Sequence record: PX216937.1
Direction: 5' to 3' (one strand)
Source of the DNA: a phage
DNA length: 41,268 nt
The notes under the pieces are model-generated. The model was not told where the DNA came from, made no database searches, and saw only the letters and a program-made list of their open reading frames with translations. Below are positions 3,158 through 41,268 of the stretch, piece by piece (the first letter of the stretch is position 1; each line of letters opens with the position of its first letter). Made by a program: the position numbers and the translations under genes.

Positions 3158-3427
3158 TCAGTTCAGTGTGTACTTCTCATCTTCAGTGAGACCGTCAGCG
3201 CCCACTAGGTTCTGGTACTCTTCGAGTCCATCTGCCAGGCCACCAAGGATGTTACGGTCTGGCTGTAACTTGGAGACTTGGAACTTGTGGCGCTCTAACA
3301 GTTTCCCGATAGCGTTGTACAGTTGAGGTGTGCGCTTATCATCATCCTGAAGGTCTTTCAGCATACGTTGAGCCATCTCAGTGTCCAGCATCTCAAGGAA
3401 TTGAATCAAGGACTTATCATTAGACAT
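3158..3427 (-). CDS. 18: Terminase small subunit (DNA maturase A)
   Basis: 89 aa, same size and position as T7 gp18. Confidence 0.85.
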   Translation of the reverse strand: MSNDKSLIQFLEMLDTEMAQRMLKDLQDDDKRTPQLYNAIGKLLERHKFQVSKLQPDRNILGGLADGLEEYQNLVGADGLTEDEKYTLN

Positions 3428-3626
3428 CTTTACCCTCCTTCTTCCATTTGATAATCACATCGACTACCTTGGCACCAATTTGAGCCACTGTGTAGGCAAT
3501 TGCAGCTACATAGAACCACTCGTTAAGGGACAGTCCGAAGAACAGACGGGCAGCACCATCGGCTACACCTGTCCCTACAATCGGAGCAGCCTTCACTACC
3601 TCGTTATTAAAATCTAATGAAAGCAT
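3420..3626 (-). CDS. 17.5: Class II holin (gp17.5)
   Basis: 68 aa MLSLDFNNEVVKAAPIVGTGVADGAARLFFGLSLNEWFYVAAIAYTV..., nearly identical to recalled T7 gp17.5. Confidence 0.9.
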   Translation of the reverse strand: MLSLDFNNEVVKAAPIVGTGVADGAARLFFGLSLNEWFYVAAIAYTVAQIGAKVVDVIIKWKKEGKDV

Positions 3627-35062: not shown

Positions 35063-37714
35063 TTAGGCAAACGCAAAGTCTGACTTAAGGATTTCTTGGA
35101 GGTCAAGAGCGCCTTTAGCTGGCATCTCAGGCATCTTGTCAAGCTGTGACTCGTGCAACTGGTCAGCAAACTGTTCATAGAAGTCTGCAAGTACATCGTT
35201 CTCTTCGTAAGTGTTAACCATCGTTTCACGCACTGCTTTAAACAGGTTGCCAGCATCAGCAGGAATAGTACCAAAGGAGTCATGAATCAGTGCAAAGGAT
35301 TCCACACCGTAGACCTCATTGGAGCGAACCACAGTCATGCGCAGGTGACTACCATCCATTGAGTGAACAAAGTTAGGTGCGATGCCTGACTCCTGCTTAC
35401 GTGCGTCAATTCCGCTATCCTTGTTGGTGTTCACGGTAGGCTGCAAACGAATCTGCCCCAAGAACATCAGGTTCAAACGAGTCTGTACTGGCTTCTTGTA
35501 TTCCTGCCAGACCGGGAAGCCATCAGGAGTTACCCAATGTACCGCGCAGCGCTTGCGGAGAACCTCTTTAGTCTTCTTGTCCTTGACTTCAGCAGCCAGA
35601 AGTTTAGCAGCAGACTTCAACCAGTTCATCGCTTCAACCGCTGCGACAACTGTGACCGTTACAGCGTTCCAAATCAGTTTAGCCATATAGCCAGCCGCTT
35701 GGTTCGGTTGAGTGAACATCAATCCCTTGCCATCGTCGATAGCGGGCTGAATGGTGTCCTCAAGAACTTGGTCACGGAAGCCGTACTCTTTGGAACCGTA
35801 AGCCAACGTCATGACAGAACGTTTAGTGACCTTGCGGGTTACACCGTATGCCAGCCACTGACCAGCCAGTTCCTTCGTGCCTAACTTCAGCTTCTCAGTG
35901 ATTTCTCCCGTGTCCTTATTGGTCACTGTCTCTACTTCGTTGTCGGTCCCGTTGATAACATCTTGATTCAGGATTTCGTTAACACGGTCAGCAACAATGC
36001 GGTAGATGTCTTGGACTTCCTTGCTCGGCAGCAGGTTAACAGCGCGTCCACCTACTTCATCACGCAGCATTGCAGAGAAGTGCTGAATACCAGAGCAAGA
36101 GCCATCGAACGCCAGCGGCAGAGAGCAGTTGTAGTTCATACCGTGGTGCTGCACACCTGCATACTCAAAGCAGAATGCGAGGAAGCAGAACGGAGAGTCT
36201 TGTTCAGCCCACCAAGTGTTAGCAATAGGGTCAGCCGCAACGCTCATGATGTTCTCGTGGTTGTCCTCAATGAACTTGATGCGTTCTGCAAAGTCCACCT
36301 TGTCCACACCAGCAGTGTTTGCACCGTGAATCTTCAGCCAGTAGTACCCATCGACACCAATCGGTTTACCTTTAGCGAGCGTTAACAGACCCTTGGTCAT
36401 GTCGTTGCCTTGCGGGTTGAACATCGGTACAGCGTACACACGACCGCGCCAGTCCATGTTCATCGGGAACCAGATAGCTTTAAACTGTGCGAACTTATTG
36501 GCTTGTCCTAACATGAACTCCATGCTCATGCGACGAGACACGCGAGCCTTCTCTTTGCGATAGATTGCGGAGGCCGCTTTCTTCCACGCTTTCAGAGCCG
36601 CTTCGTTCGTGTCGATGTCTTCAGGTTTGACCGGAAGTTCACCACGTTCGAGAGCAGGTACATCTTCAACCGGGCAATGCTTCCAGTTCACAATCTCGTT
36701 GACCACTGCCAGAACCTTCTTGTTAATCTTCCAAGGAGTATTCTGTGCGATGTTCACCGCCTTGTAAACTTCAGGCATGTACACGTCGTTGTAACGCTCA
36801 AGTCCCTTCTTGGAACCAGTGCGAACCAGAGAGAGAGGCTTGCGACCAGCAGCCCAATATCCACCACCTACCGGAGAAGTCCAAGGCTTCGGCGGGACCA
36901 CACAAGGTTGGTACATTGGAGCGATTGCAGCCAGTGCGCCAGCACGTTTAGATAGCAGGTCAACATATTGCTCGGTTAACTGGATGTACTCACCATCCTT
37001 CTCAACGTTACCAGCAAACGGTCGGTGTAACTCAACGAGACCAGTAGACCCGATGAGCAGTTCCAACATGCGCACACCAACGTGGATTGATTCTTCAGGT
37101 GTCCATGTAGTCCACTTGGTTTGCAGTTGACCAGCATCTAACATCTTGCCTTCTACAGCTTGCATGAATGCTTTCTTGTAGACGATACCAACGCGCTTGT
37201 TCAGTGCCTCCTGTACGTGATTCTTAAAGTGTTTCGCTTCTTCATCACGAATGCGTCCGAAACGTAACTCATCTTCAATGCTACGACCAATCTTAGTGGC
37301 GACCGATTGAAGGTTCGTGTATTCCTCTTTCGTCAAGCAAGCCAGTGTGACCTTCAGTGTGATGAATGCGGCAGCTTCCGGTGCAATCTTCTGTACCAGA
37401 TTGTAGGCCACTGGACGCTTGCCACGCTTAGCTTCCACTTCGGTGAACCAAGTGTTCCATGCTTCAATGAACTTCGGTGCGAGAGATGACAGGAGCGGTT
37501 TAGCCACTGCGTTATCACCGAATTCACCAGCTTTGATTTGACGTTCCATAGCCTTCAGGAAACGCTTCTCGCCTTCGGTGTGCGCTTCGTGTTCCAACTC
37601 AAGCTGCGTAGCTGCAAGCTGTGCGCCATAATGGTCAGCCAGAATGTTGTACGGCTGAATTGCGTTAGCGATGTCAGAGAAGTCGTTCTTTGGTGCGTTG
37701 ATTACGTTAGTCAT
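35063..37714 (-). CDS. 1: Single-subunit DNA-directed RNA polymerase (T7 RNAP family)
   Basis: 883 aa, the same length as T7 RNAP; long identical blocks (GRRPLALVRT-like, KAIWFP.NMDWRGRVYAV, GNDMTKGLLTLAKGKPIG, DSPFCFLAFCFEYAGVQHHG, LPLAFDGSCSGIQHFSAMLRDEVGGRAVNLLPS, specificity-loop region NTNKDSGIDARKQESGIAPNFVHS, C-terminal FAFA). Confidence 0.99.
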   Translation of the reverse strand: MTNVINAPKNDFSDIANAIQPYNILADHYGAQLAATQLELEHEAHTEGEKRFLKAMERQIKAGEFGDNAVAKPLLSSLAPKFIEAWNTWFTEVEAKRGKRPVAYNLVQKIAPEAAAFITLKVTLACLTKEEYTNLQSVATKIGRSIEDELRFGRIRDEEAKHFKNHVQEALNKRVGIVYKKAFMQAVEGKMLDAGQLQTKWTTWTPEESIHVGVRMLELLIGSTGLVELHRPFAGNVEKDGEYIQLTEQYVDLLSKRAGALAAIAPMYQPCVVPPKPWTSPVGGGYWAAGRKPLSLVRTGSKKGLERYNDVYMPEVYKAVNIAQNTPWKINKKVLAVVNEIVNWKHCPVEDVPALERGELPVKPEDIDTNEAALKAWKKAASAIYRKEKARVSRRMSMEFMLGQANKFAQFKAIWFPMNMDWRGRVYAVPMFNPQGNDMTKGLLTLAKGKPIGVDGYYWLKIHGANTAGVDKVDFAERIKFIEDNHENIMSVAADPIANTWWAEQDSPFCFLAFCFEYAGVQHHGMNYNCSLPLAFDGSCSGIQHFSAMLRDEVGGRAVNLLPSKEVQDIYRIVADRVNEILNQDVINGTDNEVETVTNKDTGEITEKLKLGTKELAGQWLAYGVTRKVTKRSVMTLAYGSKEYGFRDQVLEDTIQPAIDDGKGLMFTQPNQAAGYMAKLIWNAVTVTVVAAVEAMNWLKSAAKLLAAEVKDKKTKEVLRKRCAVHWVTPDGFPVWQEYKKPVQTRLNLMFLGQIRLQPTVNTNKDSGIDARKQESGIAPNFVHSMDGSHLRMTVVRSNEVYGVESFALIHDSFGTIPADAGNLFKAVRETMVNTYEENDVLADFYEQFADQLHESQLDKMPEMPAKGALDLQEILKSDFAFA

Positions 37715-37740
37715 TGTTGCCTCACGTTGTTAAGAAAGTT

Positions 37741-37790
37741 TATCTATAAAGGCCAGCAGTCAGTGCCGACCTTGAAGATACACCTTATCA
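37741..37790 (-). promoter_or_regulatory. RNase III-type hairpin (R1-like) between gene 0.7 and gene 1
   Basis: Minus-strand AAGGUCGGCACUGACUGCUGGCCUU imperfect hairpin; no phage promoter here, consistent with host-RNAP transcription of gene 1. Confidence 0.45.
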
Positions 37791-38888
37791 GCCCATCAGT
37801 TTAGCGTCAAGTACCTTGTCGATGTTCAAAGGGAGACCCGCTTGGATTGCGAGGCGGTCCCCTAGTAGCCACTTAAGGCCGTTCACTTGGTCAATCTTGC
37901 GTATCGTTGCATTACCATTACGCAGCCAGAAGTCATGCCATGCAGACCCCATGAGCATCTCGGCACGGCGTTCGTTGCGCTCAATCGCACCGCGTTCCCT
38001 GCGGATTGCCATAAAATGTAAGCGGTCACGTTCAGCTACCTTAGCACGTAACTTACGGTTGCGCTTACGGCGTTTCATGTTAGATTTCTTGTTCATCCAG
38101 TAAGTGCCTTTAGGGTCACGCTTGGCCTTGCGGTTGCGACAGCGTTCAATGATGCGCTCGTTAGCTATCGCCTCAACCTCGGCAATCAGTGCTTCAGGGT
38201 CCAGAGGAAAACCGTCCTCACGTTCACGGTCATGTGAGAAACTCACCGGGTCAGTGATGTACGGAACATCGTTATCGTCGAACATAATGTTCCCGCTGTG
38301 CATGTCGAAGGACGCAATGCCATGGAAGAACTCACGAATCAGCTTGCATGTCTCAACAAACTCCCCGTCCCACCCAGTGCGGAAGTCATAAGCCCCAGAG
38401 TTCCACTCAATAACCTCACGTGCAATATCAGCGTACTCGTCGTGCACCTTGTTACCAAGTGGCGCACATTCATTCAGGGCATCGAGAACCACCGTGTAGC
38501 AACCTGCATGACGTGCTACGTGATAGACGTTAGGGATACCCGCTCGGCCTTGGTGCATCCTACAGAATGCAGTGTATGCAGCACCTGAATCCTCTTTCTT
38601 AAAGCCAACCTTGATGACCCGACCCGGTAACAATTCGTGCGAGTAGGCCGCGCTAAAGTGACCATTGCCTAACATGCGGAACCCTGCATCACGCATCAGT
38701 GCGCCCAATGTGTGCCACCAGTCCTGATACTCCAAGCCGTTCGAGCCATCGGTGTCGTTACCATCGCATGTTTCACCGTTCACGATGTCAGCAGCCAGTG
38801 CAACCAGAAGAGGCTGGCGCTTGTCCAAGTCGCTAATCGGAAGAGACTTGATGATTGCCAGACGTGCCTGAATGTCGGTGTAGTTCAT
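37788..38888 (-). CDS. 0.7: Serine/threonine protein kinase with host-shutoff region (gp0.7)
   Basis: 366 aa; ETCDG, GFKMLGNGHFSAAYSH.LLP.RVIKVGFKKEDSGAAYTAFCRM.QGR.GIPNVY, HAGCYTVVLDAL, GWDGEFVETCKLIR.FF.GIASFDMHSGNIMF and DVPYITDPVSFS match recalled T7 gp0.7. Confidence 0.95.
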   Translation of the reverse strand: MNYTDIQARLAIIKSLPISDLDKRQPLLVALAADIVNGETCDGNDTDGSNGLEYQDWWHTLGALMRDAGFRMLGNGHFSAAYSHELLPGRVIKVGFKKEDSGAAYTAFCRMHQGRAGIPNVYHVARHAGCYTVVLDALNECAPLGNKVHDEYADIAREVIEWNSGAYDFRTGWDGEFVETCKLIREFFHGIASFDMHSGNIMFDDNDVPYITDPVSFSHDREREDGFPLDPEALIAEVEAIANERIIERCRNRKAKRDPKGTYWMNKKSNMKRRKRNRKLRAKVAERDRLHFMAIRRERGAIERNERRAEMLMGSAWHDFWLRNGNATIRKIDQVNGLKWLLGDRLAIQAGLPLNIDKVLDAKLMG

Positions 38889-38909
38889 TAGATTGTGTCC
38901 TATTTAAGT

Positions 38910-39128
38910 TTAAGAAATAGCGTTCAATGTATTGGTTAATGCTTGTTCGAGTGCTGCGAGCTTCTGTGCTTTGACCTTGGCCTTTCGTCTATGCCATGCA
39001 GCCCGCTCCTGTTCCTTGCGTCGTTCGAGGTTGTTCTCACGCCAAGTTCTCACGATACGCCTGTTTGCTGCATTGAGTGTACCATTAGACCTATAGCCTT
39101 TCTTCAGTTCATCAGTGTGTTGCAACAT
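38910..39128 (-). CDS. Hypothetical small basic early protein
   Basis: 72-aa ORF, Arg/Lys-rich, coiled-coil-like; lies in the early region between the SAMase-like gene and the kinase. Confidence 0.5.
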   Translation of the reverse strand: MLQHTDELKKGYRSNGTLNAANRRIVRTWRENNLERRKEQERAAWHRRKAKVKAQKLAALEQALTNTLNAIS

Positions 39129-39324
39129 AGAAGATACCTACCTTGTTAGCCTTAAAGCGCCCGTTGAGTTCACGGACTGTGAATCGTGGTAGAAAGCCAT
39201 ACTTCAGGTGCGAGAAGTTAGCCTTGTGTACCTTGAGACCCTTGCGGAAGTCCCGAAGGAAGTACGCCCCAATCAGAGCGTACATTGTGATTACGAAGAG
39301 TGCGACCATTAGACCACCTTCCAA
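39112..39324 (-). CDS. Hypothetical small early protein with N-terminal hydrophobic segment
   Basis: 70-aa ORF (the true start may be the internal Met MVALFVITMYALIGAYFL); overlaps the SAMase stop by a few codons. Confidence 0.45.
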   Translation of the reverse strand: MEGGLMVALFVITMYALIGAYFLRDFRKGLKVHKANFSHLKYGFLPRFTVRELNGRFKANKVGIFYVATH

Positions 39325-39764
39325 CCACGTCCGAACTCATCGACCGTGTAGTTACCAGTCAGTTCAGCATCTTGTGCGACCATCTGGAAAGACCCAATGC
39401 GCTCAGTCTTCCAACCACCCAAGCCACCAGCAAAGATTAGTGCGGCGCTGTGAGTCTGTGCCTTATAGACCAGCACACAGTCTTGCTCATAGTCGTTACA
39501 AGCCAACCGTGCGACACTTACAGCTTGTGCCTTGGTTGTGCAGCGTACTCGGATGGTTTGCTCTTCAGCGGGTGACTCCATGCCAGCCTCATGGTAACAA
39601 CCTGTCAAGTCAGTAGACTCAACACTGCCATATTCCATCGGTGCATTGCGTAAGCTGTTGACTAAGCGACGATGACGGCTAAGGTTATCCAAGTGGTGCA
39701 GGTTAGAGCGGAACGCTGATACCAGTACATAGAATACGTTTGCAGGCTCGTTAGTGTAAATCAT
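39309..39764 (-). CDS. S-adenosyl-L-methionine hydrolase/lyase (T3-type SAMase-like anti-restriction protein)
   Basis: 151 aa, MIYTNEPANVFYVLVSAFRSNL...YGSVESTDLTGCY...VRC..KAQA..VARLACN..EQDCVLVYK.QTH...TIDEFGR.W.V; strong resemblance to the T3 gene 0.3 SAMase as I recall it (152 aa). Confidence 0.8.
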   Translation of the reverse strand: MIYTNEPANVFYVLVSAFRSNLHHLDNLSRHRRLVNSLRNAPMEYGSVESTDLTGCYHEAGMESPAEEQTIRVRCTTKAQAVSVARLACNDYEQDCVLVYKAQTHSAALIFAGGLGGWKTERIGSFQMVAQDAELTGNYTVDEFGRGWKVV

Positions 39765-39786
39765 GATAGTGCCTCATTATGTGTGT

Positions 39787-39840
39787 GTTAGTGATAATCA
39801 AAAAGGCCACTCGCTAGGAGCGACCTTGAGTTTATCACTC
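39787..39840 (-). promoter_or_regulatory. RNase III-type hairpin (R0.5-like) between the Ocr and SAMase-like genes
   Basis: gataatcaaaaaggccactcgctaggagcgaccttgagtttatcac; imperfect hairpin of the same family as 40210..40265. Confidence 0.5.
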
Positions 39841-40179
39841 AGCAGACTCTTCGACTTCCTCAAGATATTCGTCCAGTAAGTCCTCAGCGTCTTCCCAAAG
39901 GTCAATCGTTAATTGCTCATAGATACGTGCTTGCAGAATACGGATTACATCCTTGGTGTCCGGCATCAGACCAGAATCCTCAAACTCAAGGTTAATGCCT
40001 TCGCTTGCCATTACGCTGAAAACCTCGCTGTAGTAGTGCGGAACAGCATTATCAGCAGCCATGTGCACTGCATCGTGCAGGCCATCAGTGTCACGGATGT
40101 CATCATAACGGATGTTTTCTTTCAGCATTTCGTAAGCGTGGTCAAAAACGTTGTTATAAGTCATGTTAGACATAGCCAT
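39835..40179 (-). CDS. 0.3: Ocr (overcome classical restriction) DNA-mimic anti-restriction protein
   Basis: 114 aa, [48 protein letters not shown]...[56 protein letters not shown]; near-identical to recalled T7 Ocr. Confidence 0.97.
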
Positions 40180-40209
40180 CTTGTGTTACCTCATGTGGTT
40201 GTTAGTCAG

Positions 40210-40265
40210 TGATTATCAAAAAGGCTCCTCGTATAGTGCTTTCGAGTCACCTTGAGTTAATCACT
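40210..40265 (-). promoter_or_regulatory. RNase III-type hairpin (R0.3-like) upstream of the Ocr gene
   Basis: Minus-strand GUGAUUAACUCAAGGUGACUCGAAAGCACUAUACGAGGAGCCUUUUUGAUAAUCAC imperfect hairpin. Confidence 0.5.
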
Positions 40266-40534
40266 ATCGGCTTCGTCACTGTTTAAACGCTAGTGCGTTC
40301 ACGTCATCCCGTAGTTCTTGACTACCTGTCTCGCAGTAGGGAATTACACGACCAAATTGTTAAAGAACTTTAAGTGCAGGTTTGTTAGCACCGAGTCACT
40401 TTCAGTGTGTGACCTCACAAGAACGTTATGTATGTTTCCGACAAGCTCTTTATTATCGTGGTCGCTTGTGCTTTCGGCATCTATCCACTATGTCGCGTTT
40501 TTACACCTACGACACTCGGTGTCTACTGCGATAC

Positions 40535-40564
40535 ATCTTACATCTTGTTGTTGCTGCTTGTCAA
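40535..40564 (-). promoter_or_regulatory. Host sigma70-type early promoter (A3-position): TTGACA - 18 bp - TAAGAT
   Basis: Minus-strand TTGACAagcagcaacaacaagatgTAAGAT; the hexamers are the same as those I recall for a T7 early promoter. Confidence 0.55.
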
Positions 40565-40630
40565 CTACTTTTGTTTGTCACCGTGACACCTCATGTTGTT
40601 TCATAGGGCGACCATTTGTTGACGACTGCT

Positions 40631-40659
40631 ATACTACGTTATTGCTTTCGTTGAGTCAA
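40631..40659 (-). promoter_or_regulatory. Host sigma70-type early promoter (A2-position): TTGACT - 17 bp - TAGTAT
   Basis: Minus-strand TTGACTcaacgaaagcaataacgTAGTAT. Confidence 0.5.
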
Positions 40660-40765
40660 CCACTTTCTTATGTCTGGTTGATGACTACTTGAGACCCTTC
40701 AGCATTACCAGATAACTCGCGGTCTTGTCTGGTAGTTGATAGCGTTGTGTCTCTCAACGGTTGCT

Positions 40766-40794
40766 ATAGTCTCATAGTTGTTTCTCAGAGTCAA
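40766..40794 (-). promoter_or_regulatory. Host sigma70-type early promoter (A1-position): TTGACT - 17 bp - GACTAT
   Basis: Minus-strand TTGACTctgagaaacaactatgaGACTAT, followed by ...GAGAGACACAACG, which resembles the T7 A1 initial transcribed region (GAGAGGGACACGG). Confidence 0.45.
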
Positions 40795-40869
40795 CCATTA
40801 GTTGAAACTTTAAGTAGTCTTAGAGTCTCTTTAAGTTAGACATATAGAGAAGGGCAATCAACATAGACC

Positions 40870-40892
40870 ATTCTCAATAGTGAGTCGTATAG
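40870..40892 (-). promoter_or_regulatory. Phage RNAP promoter (phiOL-like), CTATACGACTCACTATTGAGAAT
   Basis: Promoter-like match near the genome left end, upstream of the sigma70 promoters, as phiOL is in T7. Confidence 0.65.
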
Positions 40893-40959
40893 CTGTATGG
40901 TCTTTAAGGCTGGTCTAATAGTGGTAACGATAGGTGTCTATAGACTGAAGGCACCGACT

Positions 40960-41230
40960 GAAGGTTAACATAAGGATAGGCAGCCATAAGGATAGACATA
41001 AGGTTAGCGTAGCTAATAAGAGGTGACATAAGGTGTTAACTCTAAGAGGAAACATAAGGTGATTACAGATAGGGACACAGAGAGGACTACATATAGTGGT
41101 CATAAGGTCCCACTAAGCACTACATCTAGTGGTAACACCCAAAGTTAACCCAATGTCTCACATAAGGATTGACATTAAGTAAACCATAAGTTAACATAAG
41201 GGGTGGCACTCTTTGGGTGGAACTGAAGGA
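40960..41230. repeat. Array of CATAAGG heptamers (about 9 copies, with CTAAGAG variants) at the genome end; similar copies at 100..350
   Basis: Repeated acataagg/ccataagg/tcataagg at irregular spacing across the terminal repeat and adjacent unique sequence at both genome ends. Confidence 0.6.
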
Positions 41231-41268
41231 GGCCATAGGGGGGAACTCGGTGTGTATGAACTATGAGA
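41071..41268. repeat. Direct terminal repeat (copy at the phage left end); identical to 1..198
   Basis: Exact 198-bp identity with the window start. Confidence 0.85.

Follow-up and report, generated by a model that had tools for sequence, protein, structure and literature searches.

Tandem Ocr and SAM lyase genes in the early region of the Berlinvirus genome PX216937.1

The window analysed here, the whole stretch of 41,268 nucleotides of sequence record PX216937.1, is a complete genome of a Berlinvirus (a T7-like podophage) with 198-bp terminal repeats. Its early region consists, in this order, of promoters, an R0.3 hairpin, the gene for Ocr, an R0.5 hairpin, a SAM lyase (SAMase) gene, a 0.6A-like gene, more small ORFs and then the 0.7 kinase. 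A preliminary description of this DNA had located an Ocr gene at 39835..40179 and a SAMase-like gene at 39309..39764, and both ORFs lie exactly at these coordinates on the minus strand. They are intact and full length, and each has its own GAGG Shine-Dalgarno motif upstream (8 nt upstream for Ocr). Ahead of the two genes and on the same strand, a consensus scan gives a candidate host-RNA-polymerase 'A' promoter at 40631..40659 (sigma-70-like, TTGACT-17-TAGTAT, 9/12 matches) and a second sigma-70-like early promoter at 40535..40564 (TTGACA-18-TAAGAT, 10/12 matches). Taking promoters A1-A3 of T7 as the model, we think that these sites probably play the A-promoter role. On the other side, a gp0.6A-like ORF of 65 aa (39112..39309, minus strand; phrog_2385, E=4.8e-28) begins with an ATG that overlaps the SAMase stop codon (TAATG). 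This ORF, the homologue of which is labelled 0.6A in the BA14 and 285P annotations, is the usual gene 3' of the SAMase in Berlinviruses, and it is collinear with SWJM-03, JSS2 and SPLA4.

Ocr is a gp0.3-type DNA mimic of 114 aa, which had been described as a near-identical homologue of the T7 protein, and the comparisons bear this out. It matches Pfam PF08684 with 204.1 bits (cut-off 25; E=4.3e-61; profile positions 1-100/101), phrog_2568 with E=1.7e-54, and T7 Ocr in PDB 1S7Z/2Y7C with E=1.2e-66, residues 1-112 being aligned on 1-112 without gaps. The identity to T7 Ocr is 93%, with eight differences in 112 aa. As in T7, it is the first gene behind the early promoters and the R0.3 hairpin. 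With 29 D+E residues and a pI of 4.05, its acidity equals that of residues 1-112 of T7 Ocr. A difference lies at the C-terminus, ...EEVEE-SAE, where the reading frame is fused to the three final codons of gene 0.4; instead of SAE, the T7 protein has YEEDEE as its last residues. Two acidic residues of T7 Ocr are substituted, D33G and D63N (full-length numbering, Met=1), corresponding to D32G and D62N in the 116-aa numbering of PMC3439906, and one is gained, N103D. The acidic patch at aa 59-73 is critical according to mutagenesis, in which the changes were tried only as a combined multi-residue mutant that lost inhibition (PMC3439906); five of its six residues (E59, D62, E64, E66, D67 and D73 in the numbering of that work) are kept here, D62 being replaced by N. 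Versions of Ocr that end at residue 99 or 109 remain able to block restriction (PMC3439906), so we expect the natural truncation near residue 111 to be tolerated; in the same work, the form ending at 109 had lost the inhibition of EcoKI methylation.

The SAMase gene encodes a protein of 151 aa that was said to resemble the gene 0.3 product of T3, and this likeness is confirmed by 67% identity over the full length. The protein matches Pfam PF23780 (S-AdoMet_lyase) with 135.9 bits (cut-off 28; E=1.1e-39; profile positions 1-132/133), and the T3 SAMase in PDB 7OCK/8BB1 with E=4.5e-62 over residues 1-150. Judged by these scores, the family matches of both Ocr and SAMase far exceed chance similarity. 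For the SAMase, a comparison of the SAM-lyase residues with T3 and Svi3-3 had been proposed. In an alignment with T3 and seven other phage SAMases, the five SAM-binding residues G55, Y57, E68, Q94 and D95 are all invariant; these T3 positions are equivalent to G56, Y58, E69, Q104 and E105 of Svi3-3, from which the roles of the residues are known (PMC7877911), and the T3 mutants E68Q/Q94A support these roles (bioRxiv 10.1101/2023.02.27.530186). Most positions by which the T3 enzyme contacts MetK are kept as well, namely I2 and T4 in the N-terminal part and Q103 and T104 in the beta4-beta5 loop, while K5 is replaced by N, a residue common to A7 and P694. Besides this substitution, the protein differs from the T3 SAMase by a one-residue deletion near position 123 and a diverged C-terminal third; moreover, its gene, unlike that of T3, is not the first of the early operon. 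Neither the Ocr nor the SAMase protein found an exact-sequence match in a large assembly index.

An RNase III-type hairpin had been proposed between the two genes, and folding of the minus strand supports it: the R0.5-type structure at 39790..39839 has -22.6 kcal/mol and z=-4.7, none of 200 shuffles being as stable, and its 5' arm overlaps the Ocr stop codon. A second, R0.3-type structure precedes Ocr at 40207..40266 on the same strand (-20.1 kcal/mol, z=-4.6). Both are formed by a lower stem, an internal loop and an upper stem, and they are direct repeats of each other (81-86%). The hairpin before Ocr is 93% identical to the lone hairpin before the SAMase in JSS2, and the one between the genes has 95% identity with the hairpin that follows gene 0.4 in P694. 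A search of 37500-41268 against Rfam with a permissive E-value gave zero matches, so the hairpins are without a curated family; we regard both as probable RNase III cleavage sites.

The pairing of Ocr with a SAMase is real and uncommon, but no fewer than twelve sequenced phages are already known to have it. Descriptions of T7-like phages usually mention either gene alone, as the preliminary description stated in agreement with the BASEL paper (PMC8594841); for the gene 0.3 locus, reviews and papers on phage collections present Ocr and SAMase as mutually alternative. Ocr is present in 572 records and SAMase in 516; as the union is 1061, only about 27 records have both, and dual carriers thus make up about 17-27 of the 1061 records having either gene (~2-3%). 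A scan of IMG/VR with the SAMase alignment returned 21 loci, among which the dual carriers are only the GenBank phages A7, P694 and IME15. Within the literature searched, we found no papers discussing the co-occurrence.

The order of Ocr followed by SAMase was known before from Shigella phage vB_ShiP-A7 (MK685668 / NC_048180), also a Berlinvirus, in which ORF43 is an 'antirestriction protein' and ORF42 a 'SAM hydrolase'; the A7 paper gives both genes in a table and does not comment on the pairing (PMC8427288). A7 is collinear with positions 40432-39449 of PX216937.1 at 89%, and it shares the order of Ocr, hairpin and SAMase, a 114-aa Ocr ending in EEVEESAE (96% identity), the loss of gene 0.4 by the same deletion, and the leader of the SAMase gene together with its first ~18 codons. 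By sequence comparison, however, the two SAMases differ in the body, which is T3/P694-like in A7 and SWJM-03/JSS2-like in PX216937.1, with an overall identity of 69% at the amino acid level, and a different 0.6A-like gene follows in A7. Eleven further carriers have the opposite order, with SAMase first: Escherichia phages P694, P151, AV103 and Ebrios, Salmonella phage RPN15, Enterobacter phage IME278, Aeromonas phages avDM11-UST, PZL-Ah1 and KFSA9, Stenotrophomonas phage IME15, and Klebsiella phage phi1_066062. They come from at least four genera, with Berlinvirus, Teseptimavirus, Teetrevirus and Kayfunavirus among them. In these phages an Ocr-family gene and a T3-type SAMase gene likewise lie adjacent or at most ~1 kb apart upstream of the 0.7 kinase, but gene 0.4 is mostly kept after Ocr, and some Ocr proteins are divergent or extended (for example, 174 aa and 43% identity in Ebrios). 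Dual carriers therefore occur with either gene order, in four or more named genera as well as in unclassified phages, and with Ocr proteins of divergent types; the catalytic residues are retained in all those aligned.

Comparison with carriers of a single gene helps in reading the history of the locus. The closest whole-genome relative, P1338 (96%), has Ocr without SAMase, and the closest SAMase donors are without Ocr. SAMase-only Berlinviruses, such as Salmonella phages SWJM-03, JSS2 and SPLA4, Yersinia phage PYPS50, and BA14, have SAMases 92-96% identical to the one studied here, followed in the same order by 0.6A, small ORFs and 0.7 kinase, whereas a lone R0.3 hairpin stands immediately before their SAMase and there is no Ocr. 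Relative to them, a unit of ~427 bp formed by one hairpin and Ocr is extra in PX216937.1, the order SAMase-0.6A-0.7 is collinear, and the single hairpin of JSS2 matches both hairpins. From this gene order, Ocr appears as an added cassette and the SAMase as a gene at its native Berlinvirus position. Insertion of a SAMase into a T7-like Ocr-0.4 backbone was considered and rejected, everything downstream of the SAMase start being collinear with SAMase-only Berlinviruses; because of this collinearity, we place the insertion of Ocr ahead of a resident SAMase. The earlier suggestion that the SAMase sits where T7 has gene 0.4 is thus only partly retained. The SAMase does follow the hairpin that lies after gene 0.4 in P694-type (T7-like) phages, but it occupies its native Berlinvirus site, with gene 0.4 deleted and Ocr added.

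The loss of gene 0.4 can be followed in comparison with P694, which has two copies of GAGTCTG at a distance of 173 bp (3418 and 3591 of the P694 sequence compared). Deleting in silico the stretch between these copies gives a 114-aa Ocr ending in EEVEESAE, matching that of PX216937.1, where the GAGTCTG joint is at 39843..39849 on the minus strand. The deletion between these microhomologies left Ocr joined to the final three codons of gene 0.4, and this gene is therefore lost; as read from the alignment, the removed stretch comprised the acidic Ocr tail and nearly the whole of gene 0.4. No gp0.4 homologue was found anywhere in the window. In IMG/VR, A7 is the sole match of the junction-specific 19-mer GTCGAAGAGTCTGCTGAGT; four metagenome hits, in which neither of the two proteins is encoded, are due to chance. 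A further joint lies within the SAMase gene. In a sliding-window identity scan, positions 39845-39706 are 90-100% like A7/P694, and positions 39705-39106 mostly reach 90-100% with SWJM-03/JSS2/SPLA4, against only 30-85% with A7. The crossover zone maps to 39705..39725, at about codons 14-20, within the invariant NVFYVLVSAFRSNL stretch, and by this change of affinity the SAMase gene is itself a recombinant.

Taken as a whole, these observations are best explained, and in our opinion with good probability, by two co-expressed early genes that give layered protection against SAM-dependent, DNA-binding defences (type I R-M, BREX), the pair having been assembled by recombination. Expression, enzymatic activity and any benefit of having both genes are predictions of this explanation. 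Most likely, host RNA polymerase would transcribe Ocr and SAMase together in the first minutes of infection, and RNase III would cut at the flanking hairpins, leaving separate stable mRNAs, each translated from its own GAGG site. The SAM lyase would cleave SAM into MTA and homoserine lactone; it would probably also bind MetK, as the T3 enzyme does, so that resynthesis of SAM is blocked. Deprived of SAM, type I R-M and BREX would be starved, and possibly also further nucleases that depend on it. Ocr and SAMase would strike one defence class at two independent points; a host enzyme resisting one of them could therefore still be disarmed by the other. As for the origin, an Ocr cassette from a T7-like lineage may have been placed before the resident Berlinvirus SAMase with the related RNase III hairpins as homology, gene 0.4 may then have been removed by the 173-bp microhomology deletion, and the module may later have passed between Berlinviruses via a crossover in the conserved 5' end of the SAMase. 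In favour of this explanation we also cite the purifying selection on both genes seen in the low pairwise dN/dS values, which mostly capture the time before the genes were joined (for Ocr, 0.05 against A7 and 0.11 against P1338; for SAMase, 0.105 against SWJM-03 and 0.17 against A7). Against it weigh the rarity of the pair, the N in place of K5 in the SAMase, and the two acidic residues that Ocr has lost.

The same facts can be read with less or with more function. A second anti-restriction gene may add little because the known targets of T7 Ocr and T3 SAMase (type I R-M, BREX) largely overlap, and either gene alone is evidently enough for related phages, as P1338 has only Ocr and the SAMase donors lack it. 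The pair could then be a redundant by-product of recombination in the early region, which in T7-like phages is a mosaic hot-spot with repeated RNase III hairpins at its borders; one gene would be a neutral passenger of no measurable effect and would eventually be lost. The near mutual exclusivity of the two genes, the presence of only one of them in the nearest relatives, and the several recent recombination joints in the early region are all in line with this. We still judge it unlikely, since neither ORF is damaged and the catalytic and acidic residues are retained, and since PX216937.1 and A7, which have the same Ocr-delta-0.4 junction, have diverged after it (Ocr dS ~0.29) and neither has lost a gene. 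Moreover, the recurrence of the pair in two orders, at least four genera and with different Ocr types goes beyond pure accident in genomes of ~40 kb constrained by packaging. At the other extreme, the pair might be a positively selected, horizontally mobile two-gene counter-defence module, repeatedly assembled in Studiervirinae because the inhibitors are non-redundant. SAM depletion may, for instance, act on SAM-dependent defences to which Ocr cannot bind, or on variants resistant to Ocr; losing gene 0.4 may, in this lineage, be a natural escape from defences sensing Gp0.4-FtsZ (CapRel type), and the RNase III hairpins may be recombination 'linkers' for shuffling cassettes. We find this possible, although for now it is a tentative reading.

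Two other readings concern the SAMase. It might serve mainly for host takeover, in that a collapse of the SAM pool and a block of MetK would shut down host methylation, polyamine synthesis and cell division, and it might partly replace gp0.4, which would leave Ocr as the sole anti-restriction agent. The T3 SAMase is indeed toxic and MetK-binding (bioRxiv 10.1101/2023.02.27.530186), and gene 0.4, which encodes the FtsZ inhibitor of T7 (PMC13423816), is deleted exactly at the Ocr-SAMase junction. But SAMase is the only anti-restriction gene in T3 and in SAMase-only Berlinviruses, and T3 needs it against type I R-M and BREX. P694-type dual carriers also keep gene 0.4, for which reason the SAMase is not a general substitute of it, and nothing in the present data links SAM depletion with division arrest, so that a role mainly in takeover seems to us highly improbable. 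Even less credible, indeed barely worth retaining, is that one ORF is unexpressed or a decaying pseudogene, as would be the case if termination at the intergenic hairpin silenced the SAMase. In a promoter/terminator scan the upper stem of this hairpin and the following TTTGATTATC do have a weakly terminator-like score, but equivalent hairpins of related phages also lie within operons, between expressed early genes, and the full length, good Shine-Dalgarno motifs and low dN/dS of both ORFs argue against decay.

Layered early protection by two co-expressed genes is thus the reading that we prefer, even if the gain in knowledge is incremental, as Ocr and SAMase are well characterised and the pair is already in public records. 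Dual carriers show that the exclusivity of Ocr or SAMase is a strong tendency and not a rule. With these phages one can ask, in a naturally occurring setting, whether mimicry of DNA and depletion of the cofactor duplicate or complement each other against type I R-M, BREX and further defences that depend on SAM. Such phages may infect broader host ranges, which is relevant for phage therapy. Moreover, the junctions of this locus, with hairpin repeats, a deletion at a 7-bp microhomology and a crossover within conserved 5' coding sequence, give an example of how early anti-defence cassettes are exchanged.

The tandem reported in the preliminary description, an Ocr gene followed by a SAM lyase-like gene with a hairpin between them, was confirmed in full, since both ORF identities and the intergenic hairpin match. 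The product of the first ORF (39835-40179, minus strand, 114 aa) is Ocr, as it matches Pfam PF08684 (E=4.3e-61) and the T7 Ocr structures 1S7Z/2Y7C (E=1.2e-66) and differs from T7 Ocr at 8 of 112 aa (93% identity). That of the second (39309-39764, minus strand, 151 aa) is a T3-type SAM lyase (SAMase), matching Pfam PF23780 (E=1.1e-39) and, over its full length, the T3 SAMase structures 7OCK/8BB1 (E=4.5e-62), with 67% identity to T3 SAMase. The active site was checked as well. SAM is bound in Svi3-3 by G56, Y58, E69, Q104 and E105 (PMC7877911), whose T3 counterparts are G55, Y57, E68, Q94 and D95; E68 and Q94 are the sites changed in the inactive T3 mutant E68Q/Q94A (bioRxiv 10.1101/2023.02.27.530186). 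None of the five varies when the window protein is aligned with the SAMases of T3 and seven other phages, four of them dual carriers, that is, phages with both genes. Of the residues by which the T3 enzyme contacts MetK, I2, T4, Q103 and T104 are kept and K5 is replaced by N. Pairwise dN/dS is low for both genes. For Ocr it is 0.05 in comparison with Shigella phage vB_ShiP-A7 (A7) and 0.11 with P1338, and for the SAMase 0.105 with SWJM-03 and 0.17 with A7.

Bases 1-198 and 41071-41268 of the window are perfect direct terminal repeats of 198 bp, so that it represents a complete linear T7-like genome (41,268 bp, both repeats counted), stored in the reverse of the T7 convention. The phage is a Berlinvirus (Studiervirinae). 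Its top whole-genome match is Escherichia phage vB_EcoS_P1338 (P1338), 96% identical across 94% of a 24-kb query; SPLA4, P694, JSS1 and others come next, with 90-92%. On the minus strand, two sigma-70-like promoters (40631-40659 and 40535-40564) lie upstream of Ocr, which is preceded by a hairpin at 40207-40266 (-20.1 kcal/mol, z=-4.6). The intergenic hairpin at 39790-39839 (-22.6 kcal/mol, z=-4.7) is built of lower and upper stems with an internal loop between them, and the two hairpins are direct repeats with 81-86% identity. Both ORFs have a GAGG ribosome-binding site in front.

The junction between the genes can be read by comparison with Escherichia phage P694, in which Ocr, ending in ...EEVEESEEYEEDEE, is followed by gene 0.4 (product ending in ...NNKAIALESAE) and then by a hairpin of the R0.5 type, one of the RNase III-type hairpins of the T7 group. 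The window has this arrangement minus 173 bp between two GAGTCTG copies, with the joint GAGTCTG at 39843-39849 on the minus strand (compare 3418-3597 of the P694 comparison record, L002). When the 173 bp were deleted from P694 in silico, a 114-aa Ocr ending in EEVEESAE was obtained, an exact match to the window. Gene 0.4 was thus lost through this GAGTCTG-to-GAGTCTG deletion, and no homologue of it was found elsewhere in the window. The suggestion that the SAMase occupies the position of T7 gene 0.4 is therefore right only approximately, because gene 0.4 is deleted and the hairpin before the SAMase is of the R0.5 type, 95% identical to its P694 counterpart. The deletion is common to the window and A7, the sole match to the joint among IMG/VR and JGI metagenome contigs. 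Since T7 Ocr cut C-terminally at residue 99 or 109 still blocks restriction (PMC3439906), the natural truncation should be tolerated; the number of acidic residues is unchanged. The T7 gene 0.4 product is an FtsZ inhibitor and also a trigger of the CapRel(Ebc) defence, from which T7 escapes through gene 0.4 loss-of-function mutations (PMC13423816). The deletion could represent natural escape from defences that sense Gp0.4.

Compared with the SAMase-only Berlinviruses SWJM-03, JSS2 and SPLA4, the window has about 427 extra bases, corresponding to a hairpin plus Ocr. The whole stretch that begins with the SAMase start and runs via 0.6A to the kinase is collinear with theirs. The SAMase is therefore at its native place in this backbone, and Ocr is the added cassette. 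These phages have one R0.3-type hairpin (the type found before Ocr in the window) immediately 5' of the SAMase, which matches both window hairpins; JSS2 981-1040 is 93% identical to window 40266-40207, and collinearity picks up again at 39839. P1338, the nearest overall relative, shows the opposite state, Ocr followed by 0.4 without SAMase, so that the early region is very mosaic. The SAMase gene itself is a recombinant. In a sliding-window comparison, 39845-39706 (hairpin, leader and roughly the first 18 codons) matches A7 and P694 at 90-100% identity, whereas 39705-39106 mostly shares 90-100% identity with SWJM-03, JSS2 and SPLA4 and only 30-85% with A7, which places the crossover inside the coding sequence at 39705-39725, in the codons of the invariant NVFYVLVSAFRSNL stretch. 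Identity profiles suggest, as the simplest history, a cross between an A7-like donor of Ocr with 0.4 deleted, the R0.5 hairpin and the SAMase 5' end, and a JSS2-like SAMase-only Berlinvirus.

A tblastn search with fused Ocr and SAMase, requiring one locus covering at least 80% of both proteins, returned 17 records, or 12 distinct phages, among 50,697 phage records. Separate searches found Ocr in 572 records and SAMase in 516, with a union of 1061; by inclusion-exclusion, approximately 27 records, RefSeq/GenBank duplicates included, have both genes anywhere in the genome. Gene order and junction in A7 are the same as in the window. Unlike the window, P694, P151, AV103, Ebrios, RPN15, avDM11-UST, IME278, IME15 and Klebsiella phi1_066062, each checked, have the SAMase first; PZL-Ah1 and KFSA9 are similar to avDM11-UST as judged from the tblastn table alone. 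Dual carriers belong to Berlinvirus, Teseptimavirus, Teetrevirus and Kayfunavirus, with divergent Ocr types. Studiervirinae have been described as having either Ocr or SAMase (PMC8594841), and the A7 paper tabulates both genes without comment (PMC8427288); no paper on their co-occurrence was found in the limited library searched. Judged by sequence, the preliminary interpretation is correct, and the window is a further instance, in a Berlinvirus, of a pair that a dozen deposited phages already have annotated. What the analysis contributes is the anatomy of the pair's assembly, a modest gain.

Type I R-M and BREX are known targets of Ocr and of SAM lyase alike. We think it quite probable that the two genes are co-transcribed early, processed by RNase III and directed at SAM-dependent DNA-binding defences at two independent points. 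Host promoters would transcribe them together, RNase III would cut the shared transcript at both hairpins, Ocr would stop such defences from binding DNA, and the SAM lyase would deplete the cofactor and probably block MetK. The main rival, that the pair is a neutral by-product of recombination and its members fully redundant, seems unlikely to us, although two observations support it: Ocr and SAMase are nearly mutually exclusive, and relatives live with one gene alone. The junction of the window and A7 is the same by descent, and both genes have stayed intact over an Ocr synonymous distance of about 0.29 since then, which argues, without proving it, that the pair has been maintained. Minor alternatives to joint action against defences are that the SAMase serves mainly in host takeover, possibly replacing the lost FtsZ inhibitor gp0.4, or that one member of the pair is not expressed.

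Annotation of these genes is often erroneous, so that dual carriers are hidden from keyword searches. T3-type SAM lyases are widely labelled as SAM-dependent methyltransferases (phrog_2226 and many RefSeq and pharokka-style records, such as NC_048180, NC_028863, NC_071009, OR413582 and others), the Ocr gene of P694 is a 'protein kinase' in GenBank KP090454, and an intact SAMase ORF of P151 (2549-3001 of its comparison record, L003) carries no annotation in PP083182.

Downstream of the SAMase, also on the minus strand, are a gp0.6A-like ORF (39112-39309, 65 aa; phrog_2385, weak DUF3149 match, hydrophobic N-terminus), a basic 72-aa ORF (38910-39128; phrog_8393) and a protein kinase of the gp0.7 type that includes a shut-off domain (37788-38888; phrog_2828, E=8e-178). 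Gene content between SAMase and kinase differs among close relatives. JSS1_004, the homologue in the related phage JSS1, is reported to counter Dnd, CRISPR and other defences (PMC12345140), so that the number of counter-defence genes in the early region is at least three. The sequence gctatacgactcactattgagaatgg (about 40870-40895, minus strand), which lies close to the left end of the genome and upstream of the early promoters of host type, resembles a promoter of the T7-group phage RNA polymerase, comparable to T7 phiOL.
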